From assembly GCF_006345805.1 (NCBI RefSeq), contig NC_043005.1, forward strand, positions 107,756,001-107,820,000: 64,000 bases of DNA. The letters are read 5' to 3'. The notes under the pieces are model-generated. The model worked only from the letters and a program-made list of their open reading frames with translations, was not told the origin of the DNA and made no database searches. The stretch comes from Octopus sinensis (taxonomy: Eukaryota). Every line of letters starts with the position of its first letter. Position 1 is the first letter of the stretch. A program made the position numbers and the translations under genes. Shown in pieces: positions 19,396 to 47,650 of the stretch.

Positions 19396-20160
19396 TAGTA
19401 TTGTAAAAAAAAAAGGGAAGATAAGTCAGCTTAACTACATTTTCCTTTTCTTTTCAGTCTGGCCGAAGTGAGAAAATAGCTTTTCGAAATTATTGATAAT
19501 CTAGTGATTAATAATGTATACATCCATATAAGGATTGTCTGAAATATCTCTGGTTTTTCAAAGTGCAGGACTCTAACTAGTTTAGAAAAGATTTATATTG
19601 AATCTTCAGTTGAAGAAACTAAAATCTGCCATTGTAATATAATCTGTTTCAAGGATCCAACAATGTGAATTATTAAAATGTTGAAATCTTTGTAAATAAG
19701 TTCCTTAACTATTTCATCACAATACACTAATATTCCAAATTATTTAAACAGCAAAATTATGACGTTATCTGAAACTGCCTGACTAAACGAAGACGGCAGG
19801 TACTCCAAGTCACACAATAGTCGTTGAAAATCACTTAACAGACACAATAATCTAGACCCAATTCTGTGAACATTTATCAGGATATTCACACGAATAGGTA
19901 ATAAGGGTACTTATTGAACTGACAAAATGAAAAGATGGCTCTTGCACACTTTATACAGAGCTTTCCCGTCAAACAATTTGCAGCATCAGTCTCAGATGAC
20001 GCACATCTGCACAAGTCATACATAAAAAATTGTGAGACCGGTTTCGAAACCAGGGTTTAAATCATAATTCAACCTACAGTTCTATATTTAAGAGATGAGG
20101 AATTATGTACATTATTTACATTATTTACATTTGACGGATATTTGTCCTCATTTTGCTGTT

Positions 20161-20206
20161 AACACAACGTTTCCACTGATATACCCTCCAGCCTTCATCA
20201 GGTGTC
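20161..20206 (-). ncRNA. Minimal type I hammerhead ribozyme motif (stem II damaged)
   Basis: gacac CTGATGA a ggctg-gagggtatat-cagtg GAAAC GTT gtgtt. Confidence 0.6.
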
Positions 20207-20261
20207 CTGAGGAAATTTCGAACTTGGGTTCTCATTCCTAAGGCATTTTTCGATGTTGTTG

Positions 20262-20318
<57 letters not shown>

Positions 20319-20566
20319 GGAATCGGAATTATTATTCGGAATCTTGGGGTTAGTAGCCCGCGTTCTTAATCACTATGCCACGGCATATTACGTAGTGATT
20401 AAGAGCGCGTGCTACTAACCCCAAGATGCCGAGTTCGATTCCAGGCAGTGACCTGAATAATAAAATTTAAAATACTACTACTAATAATAATAATAACAAC
20501 AACAACGAAAACAACAACATTGAAAAGTACCTTAGAAATGAGAACCCAGTTTCGAAATTTCTCCAA

Positions 20567-20612
20567 GACACCTGATGAAGGCTGGAGGGTATATCAGCCG
20601 AAACAATGTGTT
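20567..20612 (+). ncRNA. Minimal type I hammerhead ribozyme motif (cleavage triplet mutated)
   Basis: gacac CTGATGA a ggctg-gagggtatat-cagcc GAAAC aat gtgtt. Confidence 0.6.
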
Positions 20613-21627
20613 AACAACAAAGAAGATGAAGACAAATATCCGTCAAATGTAAATAATGTATAATTCAACCTTTATACATAGGGTAAAAATAATCATTATC
20701 AAACCACAAATGGCATTATCACAACATTATTAACTTCACTACTACTCTATATTTCAATTCGGCAATAAATAACCACTTTGCATTAAAATATGAGGCTCCT
20801 GTAAATATAGATTTACTTCATGCTCACCAAATGAACCGATGCTTTAAATACAAGATCAGAACTAATCTCTAAATACCGCGATGAAAGAAAGTACATTCTC
20901 TCAATCTTTATCAGAAACATTCACCTTACACTAAGCAAATGCTACCATCCAAACGATCAATGTACATGTGCCAGTATATCAGTGTACATACATGTGAATG
21001 TATCTATATGTATATATGCGTGTGTATACACACACACATGCATGTGTGTATGTTTCATGTGAAGTAATGCACAATAAACTTTCTAGTTTAATCTGAGTGT
21101 GAAAGTATTTTTATACATGAAAATGTACGTAGACTTATGTTTGTGCCAACTGTAAAAAAGTGATTAGAAATTTATAAAGTTACTTCCCTTAGATTCTTTC
21201 CAATGATAAACGTATGTGTTTGCTATACGTCAATTTATGATATTATACAAAGTGAATATATATGTATGAAATATTTATATATCTAATTATTTGCATATGA
21301 CTCTGTATGTATATCCACATATATGTGTGTTTCTATGCACGCTTGTCTCTACTTGTAAACACGCAAACAGTCGGATATCAGTAGATATCTTGCCCATACG
21401 CAAGTCAAAGCAAAGGCAACTACATAACAACTATGACGGACTAGCTGCTCAATCAGCCAGTGTACTTGAGAATATCAAGCCACGTGAAACTCCGAGTATT
21501 GGATTGGAACAGACTTGTTCTATAATAGAACAAACACCCACATGTATGCGTATGTATGTATGCATGTATGTATGTATGTATATATGAATGTATGTATGTA
21601 TGTATGTATGTATGTATGTGTGTGTGT

Positions 21628-23544: not shown

Positions 23545-25320
23545 AGATGATGATTCTAAGACAACCACAGTCAAAGAAACAGCCGACCTGCTGAACACTT
23601 ACTTTCGGAGTGTCTTCACTGTATAGAAGGAAGGCGATCTACCAGACATACCAGAGTACACGTATGACACAGAGCCGACCAACTCATACATTTCTGTGGA
23701 AAATGTTCACTAGCAGCTGACAAGCCTGAAGATTACCAAGGCCCCAGGTCCGGATTGAATCAGCCTACGCATACTTTCCAAGCTATCGGATGTGCTCGCT
23801 ATGTCAATCCCACTTGCGTACAGAAAATCAATGGAGACAAGCAAAATCCCAGTCGACTGGAGAAGTGCTAACGTCACCCCCATATTCAAGAAAGGGAGCC
23901 GTTTTGCGGTCAACAACTAAAAGGCCAGTACGCTTGACCTGCGTACTGTGTAAGGTGGTGGAGATGTTTGTTCGTGAGCACATCATTGAACAACTGCGGC
24001 GAAACAACCTCATCAACCAAGAACAGCATGGGTTCACAAGGGGGAGATCATGTGTGGCGCAACCGCTTGACGTTCTTGACATCTGGACGGAGGCCTTGGC
24101 TGCAGGGGGAGGAGTCGATGCAATCTACATGGTTGGCTTGTAGCCAAAGTAGAAGCTCACGGTATCAAGGGAAATGTCCTTCAGTGGATCCGGGACTTCT
24201 TGAGCCACCGGTCACAACGAGTCTGTGTCAACGGCGTGAAGTCAGAGAGAGAAGAGGTAACAAGTGGCATTCAACAAGGCAGTGTCATTGGCCCAGTACT
24301 GTTTCCCATGTATATAATCGATCTACTTCGGCATATCCAGAGCCACAGCAGGTTATTTGCTGACGGCACAAAGATCTTCGCAAGGAATGATGTTCATGTG
24401 ACCATGGCAACGCTGCAAGACGACCTGGATCGCCTTCACAAGTGGTCGACGAACTGGCAAATACGATTCCATCCTGAGAAGTGTTCCCTCTTAAGAGTTG
24501 GGAACCCGAAGACGGACAGGAAATACTATATATGAGAGGCCATGATGCACAGGGGGAACTGACTATGGTGGAGCTAGCAGAAAGTGAAATGGAGGGGGAT
24601 CTTGCCGTCTTGATCGACAAAGGACTGACCTTCAGGAACCACATAAACCAAGTAAATCGAATCCTTGGAGTCATCCGATGATCATTTGAATATCATAACT
24701 CCTGCTGTCTTCGTTCAGTTGTACAACTCTCTAGTTCGTCCGATTCTTGAATATGGACACACAGTTTGGCAACCCCGGCATGAAGCAATGCGCTGCGAGT
24801 TGGATAATGTTCAGAAGCGTACCACCAAGCTCATTGCATCTTTGAAAGAAAAGCCATACCTAAAGCACTTGGCTGCACTAAACCTGCCTAGTATCGAACA
24901 TCACCGTCTCAGTGGGGATATGATCAACATGTATAAGTATAGGCACGGCCTGTATCTAACCAACCGCCCTCAATTCAATTACTTCCAAGGCACAAGTACG
25001 AGAGGACACAGCCTGAAATTGGAAAGATCCCATTGCAGGCTCAACAATAGAAGCTCCTTTTTTTCGTACAGCGTGTGACCGCCACCTGGAACAGTCTACC
25101 AAACAGTCTGGTCGCAGCTCCATCAGCCAATGCCTTCAAGAACAGGCTTGACGCTCACTGGAGGGAGATTCCTGCAAAATTTGACCCTGTCTGTTACTAT
25201 TAGCTACAACTGTCCAAGTGTTGTACCGCACATGACAAATTAGTTGTACTAGTGGAAAAGGACCTGTGAACAAGCTGCCAGGAGCTTCAACACGGAAACC
25301 ATTCAGCATCCAGTGAGTGT
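23545..25320 (+). mobile_element. 5'-truncated CR1-clade LINE (RT pseudogene plus 3' UTR)
   Basis: Motifs in the expected order across frameshifts: LNTYFRSVFT, KAPGPD, PVDWRSANVTPIFKKG, QHGF, QQGSVIGP, LFADGTK, LVRPILEY, TRGHSLKL, WNSLP. Confidence 0.93.
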
Positions 25321-30222: not shown

Positions 30223-31262
30223 GTCAGACATGCAGGATGTAAATAGACATCTTAAATTTTGAAAGTTTTTGATCTAAGTGTCTTGATATGTTTTCAGCGG
30301 TGTAGAATTTACAATGCAATTATTCTTTTTCATTCCAGGTGCCATTCTATTAAACGTTTGTGAAGAGTAACCATGAGATGAACAAAAAAAATAGGAGAAC
30401 TGTCAGATTTTCTAAGAGGTCGTATTGTTGGGCAATCTGAGGCTGGTCTTAGCCAGCAAAAATTTGACGAAAATCTTTAAATTCCTCTTGCTACTGTTAA
30501 TAGAATTGTAGTGCAATTCAAAATCCAACTTAAAGAATCAACAGATTCTCCTACGACCTGAGCCCCCGGAAAGGAAGCTTCGCCGTTTGAAGAGAATTGT
30601 GGAAAACAAACCCTGTTTGAAGGCCTCTGACTTTGCAAAACAGCTAGAAGTTAGTCCAAGAACATGTGTTACATAACTACATAAGCTTGGATATTATGGA
30701 TGAGTAGCTAGAAGAAAACCTCTCTTTCAACCAATTAATATCATGAAACGAAAGAAATGGGCTAAGGAGATGTCAGAAAAATCCAGTTCATTTTGGGATA
30801 GAGTGATTTTTTCAGATGAATCCAGTTTTGCATTATTTTCAGACGGTGGACGTGTTTGGATCTGGAGGCTTACCAATCAAGAATTTGATTTGAAACGACT
30901 CCAACCAACTGTGAAAGATGGCAATATCTCTGTAATGGTATGGGGGACTGTCACCAGCAATGGTCGTTCTGAGCTGATTGAATGTGTTGGAACCATAAAT
31001 TCTGAAAAATACATCGAAATACTTAAGCAAGGAATACTTCTGATGTATTCACATGATATCATAATGAGAAAGGAGTTTTTATTCATGGAAGATGGGGCTC
31101 CATGCCACACAGTGAAAAGGAATCAACAATGGCTGATTGAAAATGTAATCAAAAACCATCCTTGGCCGTGCCAATTTCCTGATATGAACCCAATTGAAAA
31201 TCTTTGGAGCATACTAGACAGGGCTATACGAAAAACTCGACAGAACCCTAAAACTAAAGATG
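30220..31262 (+). mobile_element. Tc1-like (DD34E-type) transposon with 3'-truncated transposase pseudogene
   Basis: ELSDFLRGRIVG near 30397. ORF 30743-31339 has VIFSDES, PTVK, VMVWG, EDGAPCH and PDMNPIENLW. Stops occur upstream. Confidence 0.92.
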
Positions 31263-31396
31263 GTTTTGATTCTGTGAAAGACCAGCTTTTTAATCATACA
31301 GTCATACCTGAACCTACATATATGAGTGTCTGTATATAAGAGTATATATTCACAAACACGCTTACATACATGAATGCATACATATATATAAATATA

Positions 31397-41300: not shown

Positions 41301-41405
41301 CCCAAGACACCTGATGAAAGCTGGAGGGTATATCAGCCGAAACGTTGTGTTAACAACAAACAAGATGAGGACAAATATCCCTCAAATGTAAATAATGTAG
41401 ATAAT
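41301..41405 (+). mobile_element. Solo tail fragment of the palindromic element, with the best-preserved hammerhead (41306-41351)
   Basis: gacac CTGATGA a agctg-gagggtatat-cagcc GAAAC GTT gtgtt, then aacaacaaacaagatgaggacaaatatcc as at 20612-20659. Confidence 0.8.
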
Positions 41406-41874: not shown

Positions 41875-43278
41875 TGACACCCAGAGCCTTTACACGGTGA
41901 TCCCTCAGCACGAGGGGCTGCGTGCACTCCAACATTTCCTTGACCTTTGACCCAACCCCCAACCTGACACATCCACACTCGTTCGTCTAGCCGAACTTGT
42001 CCTCTCGCTCAACTGCTTCTCGTTCGCTGGTGATTTTTATCAGTAGTGCTCGGGACTGGCCATGGGAACGAGAATGGTCCTAATTATGCGAACCTGTTCC
42101 TTGGCTACGTTGAGGCCCAAATATTCTCAAGTTTCACTAGTCCCACTCCCGAACTATACGGCCGTTATGTTGGCGACTGTATCGGTGCGACCTCATTCTC
42201 ACGCAAACATCTAGACTCCTTCTTTTCTTTTGTCAAATCTTTCCATCCTGCCCTCCACTTCTCCTGCACTATCTCTGACACCTCTGTCTCCTTTCTTGAC
42301 ATTTCGGTCAGCATTCCTCACTCCACTCTCACCATCTCCATCCACTACAAACACACAGACTCACAATCATACCTAAACTTCTCCTCCTCCCACCCCAAAC
42401 ACACCAAGCTTTCCATCCCCTATTCCCAATTCCTCCGTCTACGTAGGATCCGTAGTGACGCCCATGACTTTGAGACTCAGTCTCAACTCATGGCTCGCCA
42501 CTTCATCGTACGTGGATATCCCCTCATCACTTTCCACACCACCCCTGCAAGAGCACGTTTCGTGGACCGTGCATCTTCCCTCTCCTTCCGCACCCACCCT
42601 GCCGTCTCCCGTTTCTCCTCACCTACCGCCCCACCACCCTACCTCTCCAACGCACCATTCTCCGAGCTTTCCGGTGACTCCAGTCCGACACCTCCACTTC
42701 GCACATCTTCCCTACCCGACCCCTCCCCTCCTTTAAACGAGCTCACAACTTACGATACCTCTTGGTCCACAGCTTCTTCCCTAACCCAACCTCCCAACCT
42801 GGCTCGTTTCTCTGCTCCCGCCCACGCTGCTGCACTTGCCCTTACCTCTCCAACACCACCATACAACAACACCACATCATCTCATACCACCACGCTAACA
42901 CTGACTACTTTCCAGCCCCACATCCACACACCTACACATACACACACGCACACGTGAAGGTCATCAGCCCTCTTCCACACGCACATAATGCTCTCTTATA
43001 CACACACACACATACACCTTCGTTTTGAGATTACTACTATCGCCTCTTCTTCTTCGCTCTCCTGTGTGACCCTTCTGTCCGGCATTCACCATGATAGATC
43101 GCTAGCCACTACACATTCATTACTTTCTCTTCTTGTTTCTTTCTGTGTTCCTTTCTGTGGAAGAACATAGGCTCGAAACGTTAAAGACTTCTTTACTTCC
43201 CGAGCGTTAAACTAATACATCTGGTTGTTGTCTGCACTACCTATCTTCGTCTTTTGTTTTCTTGTGAATTCTCCCTAC
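41875..43278 (+). mobile_element. Penelope-like retroelement fragment: RT pseudogene, start of Cys-rich linker and 3' pseudo-LTR
   Basis: DTQSLYTVIP, NCFSF, GLAMGT, PNYANLFLG, RYVGD (decayed YxDD), FHPALHF, VSFLDI, SSSHPKHTKLSIPYSQFLRLRRI, CSRPRCCTCPY; pLTR at 43088-43278. Confidence 0.9.
43151..43186 (+). ncRNA. Hammerhead-like motif (U at core position 6) in the Penelope pLTR
   Basis: cttt CTGTGGA a gaac-atag-gctc GAAAC GTT aaag. Confidence 0.5.
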
Positions 43279-47474: not shown

Positions 47475-47650
47475 ATCCAAACATGAAAACACAACAACAC
47501 GAGACCGTGGAACAAGTATAGTGTTATTGGATGCTCAGGAAAGGAAAGAAAGAAGGATTTAACGTTTCGAGCAGAGCTCTTCATCAGAAACATAGGAAAA
47601 GGAAAGATCCAAGGAAGGGAAGACGGAGGAAAAAAATCGCCAACAGTACA
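47468..47650 (-). mobile_element. Penelope pLTR-like element (family E) with a canonical minimal hammerhead at 47557-47591
   Basis: Reverse complement reads gttt CTGATGA a gagc-tct-gctc GAAAC GTT aaat. Confidence 0.7.

Follow-up and report, generated by a model that had tools for sequence, protein, structure and literature searches.

Canonical EN+ Penelope/Poseidon elements, Poseidon_Ac among them, are described as encoding an RT followed by a C-terminal GIY-YIG domain, and as carrying a pseudo-LTR (pLTR) with a minimal hammerhead that overlaps the start of the ORF (PMC11167929). Elements of the Poseidon_Ac type also come with an inverted, 5'-truncated partner and with a tail at one end only (PMC11167929). 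An inverted 5' copy together with a one-sided tail of 30-40 bp is given by Craig et al. as typical of Penelope-like elements (10.1101/2021.04.23.441226), and hammerhead pairs on opposite strands, 100-700 bp apart, have been described by Cervera and de la Pena (PMC4209133). For an anole element, the purified protein is reported to cut both strands and to begin cDNA synthesis internally, at two positions by which the tail is defined, and the ORF of that element overlaps the ribozyme (PMC11167929).

Promoters of the Pol III type are known from repeats of other kinds. The TRIMp3 elements Helenus, Ajax and Cassandra are non-autonomous LTR elements with a small-RNA-derived, Pol III-type promoter in the terminal repeat; this promoter is proposed to come from a SINE insertion, and the autonomous partners are expected to use Pol II (PMC10886601). 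In Schistosoma, Sm-alpha is described as a set of non-coding tandem repeats, about 330 nt long, in which a type I hammerhead comes after a Pol III-type promoter (PMC6765202, PMC8490949). The non-LTR retrozymes, short hammerhead derivatives of Penelope pLTRs, are defined by tandem units, and the available text on them makes no mention of a tRNA head (bioRxiv 10.64898/2026.07.22.740005).

In this study, we analysed a palindromic locus in a window of 64,000 nucleotides, the whole stretch of Octopus sinensis DNA under study, and the repeat family to which it belongs. The family shares with the Poseidon_Ac type the order of protein domains, the pLTR overlapping the ORF start, the inverted partner and the one-sided tail, whereas its pLTR has a tRNA-derived head at its start, followed by an (AAT)n spacer, and it is at that head that the 5' ends of copies pile up. 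Its likeness to TRIMp3 lies in the small-RNA-derived, Pol III-type promoter within a terminal repeat, but in the octopus family it is the protein-coding element whose own repeat contains the head; TRIMp3 membership, which entails LTRs with PBS and PPT and no ORF, was rejected because the family codes for RT and GIY-YIG and its ends are of the Penelope type. It resembles Sm-alpha in the succession of promoter and hammerhead and in repeat length, but its copies are dispersed, inverted and contiguous with an RT-endonuclease ORF. Retrozyme membership was likewise set aside, as the locus is inverted and direct tandem pLTRs are rare in the octopus (about 2 of 90 sampled copies). As far as the published accounts available to us reach, the family works like TRIMp3 and Sm-alpha, with a Pol III-type head joined to a terminal repeat or a hammerhead, and is a member of neither.

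A decayed pair of terminal repeats

The locus consists of two inverted copies, 20076-20380 on the minus strand and 20381-20659 on the plus strand, which are 82% alike over 268 nt and meet at 20380/20381, the symmetry axis lying in TGCC-AC-GGCA. The direct repeat ATAATTCAACCT stands at both 20064-20075 and 20660-20671 and brackets the dimer, in agreement with the single insertion event proposed in an earlier note on this DNA. That note had also assigned to each arm a tRNA-like head, followed by an (AAT/AAC)n spacer and then by a minimal type I hammerhead, and all of these motifs were located in both arms, the hammerhead as GACAC-CTGATGA-A-stem II-GAAAC-NNN-GTGTT. The features are as follows.

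20064-20075, no strand: target-site duplication, left copy, 12 bp, a direct repeat; no other length is as frequent in the family (9 of 31)
20076-20380, minus strand: left arm, a pLTR copy with the long (tailed) 3' end (L031)
20076-20116, minus strand: 41-nt extension ('tail'), left arm only, which continues into the reading frame in ORF-bearing copies
20161-20206, minus strand: minimal type I hammerhead, likely inactive, two closing pairs of stem II lost
20256-20319, minus strand: (AAT/AAC)n spacer of the left arm
20320-20375, minus strand: left tRNA-like head, B box disrupted
20376-20385, no strand: head-to-head junction; the short palindrome on which it falls marks the 5' boundary of the pLTR
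20381-20456, plus strand: right tRNA-like head, with a degenerate A box at 20388-20398 and a B box at 20433-20442
20457-20518, plus strand: (AAT/AAC)n spacer of the right arm
20538-20659, plus strand: 5' end of the element ORF, with a putative ATG at 20538 and an overlap with the hammerhead; the short 3' end lies at 20659
20567-20612, plus strand: minimal type I hammerhead, likely inactive, cleavage triplet changed from GTT to AAT
20660-20671, no strand: target-site duplication, right copy, a direct repeat

Both arms have decayed. As the earlier note had it, the B box GTTCGATTCC is intact in the right arm and disrupted in the left; the right-arm A box carries three changes relative to the family form. 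Since both ribozymes are mutated, and since a transcript through the locus would contain a sense copy paired to an antisense copy in a long hairpin (the whole locus folds into a single hairpin with 80% of its bases paired), the self-cleavage that had been proposed would be unlikely at this locus. The palindrome is a decayed back-to-back pair of pLTRs, and the locus as a whole is almost certainly a dead and ordinary Penelope insertion.

Several other elements lie in the same window. A 5'-truncated pLTR fragment of the same family (41302-41399, plus strand) is 94% alike to the right arm and retains an intact hammerhead core and GTT. A decayed frame of a second Penelope family, of the Neptune type, occupies 42034-42957 (plus strand); it was considered as an ORF partner for the arms and rejected, because it belongs to that other family. 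The Neptune-type family has 10,622 candidates in the genome and is probably the younger of the two, since some of its open frames approach 1,000 aa. A hammerhead-like motif of a different family lies at about 47555-47590 (minus strand), with CTGATGA, a 4-bp stem II and GAAACGTT. The remaining pieces are a DDE_3 transposase fragment (30704-31339, plus strand) and RVT_1 retrotransposon fragments (24080-25078, plus strand).

The autonomous element and its insertions

Upstream of the head, some copies of the family have in common a sequence that can be read as the terminal part of a Penelope endonuclease. At 30 loci chosen on this ORF-end sequence, the ORF end is followed by the tRNA-like head in 29, and the remaining locus continues into the spacer. 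Longer copies contain RT motifs (with a Pfam RVT_1 match on the frame of L071), and L112, which starts at the head, is arranged as pLTR-ORF-pLTR (period about 2.7 kb). The longest open frame, 551 aa in L261, holds DKG, RT motifs and C-terminal nuclease motifs and gave 1,665 protein matches, homologs with a query coverage of 94-100%. GIY-YIG (PF01541) was found on three homologs among the matches listed, one of them P0064 at 42% identity; Pfam gave no match on the family's own C-terminal 214 aa, and the PDB search gave no significant match (best E 0.14). Relatives with intact frames are as close as 68% (P0001), 56% (P0003) and 54% identity (P0005). The reading frame opens inside the pLTR and passes through the hammerhead, and P0003 has the same N-terminus and an ORF that also reads through the hammerhead region.

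Each arm of the locus is thus the pLTR of an autonomous Penelope/Poseidon-type retroelement residing in the same genome, which bears out the Penelope machinery and the match to autonomous Penelope termini anticipated by the earlier note. By every feature tested the family is an EN+ Penelope-like element: its ORF encodes RT with C-terminal GIY-YIG, pLTRs flank the ORF, and the inverted 5'-truncated copy, the one-sided tail and the hammerhead are all present. As read by eye, a zinc finger in the linker that joins RT to EN is absent from L261 and present in the Neptune-type copy L280, which would place the family in the Penelope/Poseidon clade rather than in Neptune/Nematis. Every copy examined is decayed, and heads average 9% off the commonest letter; function is not readable from conservation among copies because the family is about 9% diverged. 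Stems I and II of the minimal type I hammerhead fold, and among 91 pieces that were not selected on the ribozyme, 22 have the core, closing pair and GTT intact.

Across the 2.72 Gb of the genome, exact matches to the 34-nt hammerhead core number 1,878, against none for its reversed control, and the hammerhead repeat is therefore more than a product of chance. With the exact core present in 6 of the 91 pieces, the total can be put at about 28,000 pLTR pieces, a rough estimate. To describe the insertions, the leading 90 among 100 listed core matches, all on one contig (C1), were taken as a position sample. An inverted 5' partner of any length accompanies 62 of them (two calls, L181 and L258, are doubtful), and 28 have no partner. 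The 3' ends fall into two classes, with 46 short, 40 tailed and 4 other. Both ends could be classed in 43 of the 62 pairs, and in 39 of these 43 one end is tailed and the other short (P 1.6e-8). Target duplications of 7-13 bp flank 31 of the 43 pairs, as compared with 11 cases in 212 mismatched controls. The rule in this family is thus an inverted 5' partner, one or the other of two 3' ends and a duplication of 7-13 bp, and the long-short pairing and the duplications match the two RT start sites and the double-strand cutting of the anole element (PMC11167929).

Full head-to-head dimers were flagged in 9 of the 90 copies, one of them with an internal deletion, leaving about 8. These dimers, and the single duplication that brackets the present one, are what could be expected if the palindrome transposed as a unit, as had been suggested. 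Partner length and junction vary between loci, nearly a third of the copies are partnerless (the 28 above), and the dimers fall within a continuum of monomers and partial inversions that contradicts such a unit, which we consider extremely improbable. The palindromic dimer is the usual Penelope insertion product.

Two further kinds of arrangement were seen among the copies. Composite insertions (L425, L459, L462, L470, L477, L478, L480 and others) join a truncated pLTR and a short ORF-start piece to a second pLTR piece, and in 8 of 36 the starting points of the two pieces agree to within 4 nt (a shuffle gives 1.8 on average; the pairs were read manually). Such shared starts would fit an RT that jumps to the 3' terminus of the RNA it is copying, or a template in circular form. 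In L045, L057, L061 and L067 other repeats are inserted into the (AAT)n spacer, some of which resemble the 3' ends of what we take to be a microsatellite-targeting LINE (R4/Dong).

The tRNA-derived head

The unusual feature of the family is a tRNA-derived head inside the pLTR, with A and B boxes at tRNA spacing. Rfam, run on the locus and on copy L005, matched neither a tRNA nor a hammerhead family even at E 10 (matches to microRNAs were below the cut-off and were dismissed as hairpin or microsatellite noise), and ARAGORN found no tRNA in the window. The likeness to tRNA therefore rests on direct alignment to the tRNA genes of the genome. Against 42 distinct tRNA sequences, 79 natural heads have a mean score of 45.7; under the same scoring, reverse complements reach 28.5, and 232 ORF windows average 26.3 and do not exceed 40. 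Of the 79 heads, 40 retain a strict A box and 50 a B box, and the spacing from A to B is 45 nt in 20 of the 27 heads with both, which is the commonest value in tRNAs too. The top match is tRNA-Arg(TCT), from a set of 42 sequences that lacks many isotypes. This alignment and the spacing of the boxes support the Pol III-type head that had been proposed.

Since ARAGORN misses the head of this family too, its blank result in 54 of 80 relative loci was replaced by an alignment test. Downstream of the ORF in the 27 of 80 metagenome relatives with enough flank, no head scores 45 and no A/B pair occurs, as compared with 7 of 30 and 5 of 30, respectively, in the octopus family. In the literature searched, no tRNA-derived head in a pLTR is reported, and the accessible parts of two papers on cephalopod repeats (PMC13282606 with its supplement, and PMC8967140) do not mention it. 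The short form may nevertheless be on record as a SINE already, in Repbase, Dfam, SINEBase or the O. vulgaris repeat library, or among the three octopus tRNA-derived retroposons of Ohshima and Okada 1994.

The earlier note had seen in the arms a SINE with a borrowed Penelope tail. The unit does have the A/B-box head of a tRNA-derived SINE, but instead of having only the 3' tail in common with its partner, it lies whole, with head, spacer, hammerhead and tail, in the autonomous element as its pLTR. A free SINE as donor of the head was also sought and rejected: none of 30 loci sampled on the head combines it with another tail, 27 of them continuing into the pLTR body and 3 being cut short.

The start of the template RNA and its polymerase

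The head also coincides with the place where copies begin. Fifty-one of the 90 copies get to the head; the endpoints of 18 are spread over its 66-nt body, those of 28 fall at positions 3-14, and the other 5 copies continue into the ORF, and the inverted partners are distributed over the same classes as 8, 24 and 6. Thus 28 of the 33 copies that reach the head start, and 24 of 30 partners, halt at positions 3-14, within a few bases of tRNA position +1, and by our own arithmetic the stopping rate per base is about twenty-fold higher there. Because 5' ends pile up at its first bases, the template RNA likely began at the head, and we infer that this RNA was made by Pol III.

We therefore favour, as the probable explanation, a Penelope pLTR product in which the tRNA-derived head likely set the start of a Pol III-made RNA, with no separate SINE. 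RNA starting at the head would be bound by a dimer of the element's RT-endonuclease, which would cut the two target strands about 12 bp apart. The long 3' site would then serve for cDNA primed by one target strand and the short site for cDNA primed by its counterpart, and both cDNAs would extend to the 5' end of the RNA and be joined there. Initiation within the 5' pLTR would give SINE-like, pLTR-only copies without a separate SINE, and would explain their excess.

The same pLTR product could also carry the head as a passenger, an old SINE in the 3' UTR, with transcription by Pol II and a pile-up of ends caused by a Pol II start or by stopping and folding back at the palindrome. Penelope pLTRs are described as containing promoters (PMC6765202), and 10 of the 28 junctions at the head start are fold-backs on the native palindrome, which could itself create a hotspot. 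That palindrome has just 4-6 pairs, however, and 18 of the 28 junctions lack a long fold-back; the ends coincide with tRNA +1, and the head-sampled loci gave no such SINE with another tail. A passenger head is a possibility we take seriously while holding it to be unlikely.

The RNA data contribute to its credit the lack of any signal. Reads of three runs and contigs of one, with strandedness and RNA selection unstated and from a species with related copies that may not be that of the window, were placed on copy L205; depth was equal in both directions and neither starts nor ends piled up at the head or at the hammerhead cut, so that the reads gave no support to Pol III use. This pattern fits passive read-through or an unstranded library. 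Rows of A>G and T>C changes in the reads were considered as editing and discarded, as they occur in both directions at a high share and are most likely the reference copy's own changes.

A second alternative holds that the pLTR-only copies form an independent, non-autonomous SINE-like lineage, transcribed from its own head and mobilised in trans, much as the earlier note had it, but in the form of monomers. Such copies far outnumber ORF-bearing ones: the ORF lies upstream in 4 of the 30 head-sampled loci, and at least 74 exact matches to the tail-to-ORF junction stand beside the 1,878 hammerhead cores. On the other hand, the anole template is described as requiring some 55 nt of ORF past the sites where cDNA starts (PMC11167929), which pLTR-only copies do not have, and no common flanks or separate subfamily were noticed among them on inspection. 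We regard this lineage as improbable.

If the favoured reading of a Pol III-made template is extended to the coding RNA, the absence of TTTT becomes relevant. On the coding strand, TTTT common to copies occurs 0 times across 2,284 columns, with 3.9 expected from base content and 2.4 (P 0.068) or 3.3 (P 0.024) from codon nulls. In the 40 of 80 relatives with a match of at least 1 kb, TTTT is 1.54 times expected and none has zero. The Neptune-type control has 4 against 4.1 under the codon null, but 47 against 74.6 under the base shuffle. Codon shuffles of single copies showed no significant depletion (P 0.17-0.47), and the TTT:TTC ratio of Phe codons was not significantly biased (P 0.16). Just past the tail, where a Pol III terminator might stand, ends show no peak, and run-on copies end at scattered places (62 of 70). 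The absence of TTTT, with its P of 0.02-0.07, leaves room for a passenger head, and would be a weak hint, from one lineage, of coding RNA made by Pol III. That the autonomous element switched to Pol III altogether, with the head driving a 2.7-kb coding RNA, the ORF purged of TTTT, an uncapped hammerhead RNA being translated and SINE-like copies arising as a by-product of internal priming, strikes us as doubtful.

As such, the locus is one more dead copy of a type that earlier work on Penelope elements has described. What the family adds is an autonomous element whose terminal repeat contains a likely promoter of the tRNA type, where one published view expects Pol II (PMC10886601). The pairing of one long and one short end in 39 of 43 cases provides genome-scale support for the two-site, two-strand priming seen in vitro. 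Moreover, SINE-looking copies in such numbers, roughly 28,000, can derive from a Penelope element without a separate SINE, and repeat annotations may consequently misfile families of this kind. If it were true that Pol III made the coding RNA, the family would depart clearly from the way in which the mRNAs of retrotransposons arise.
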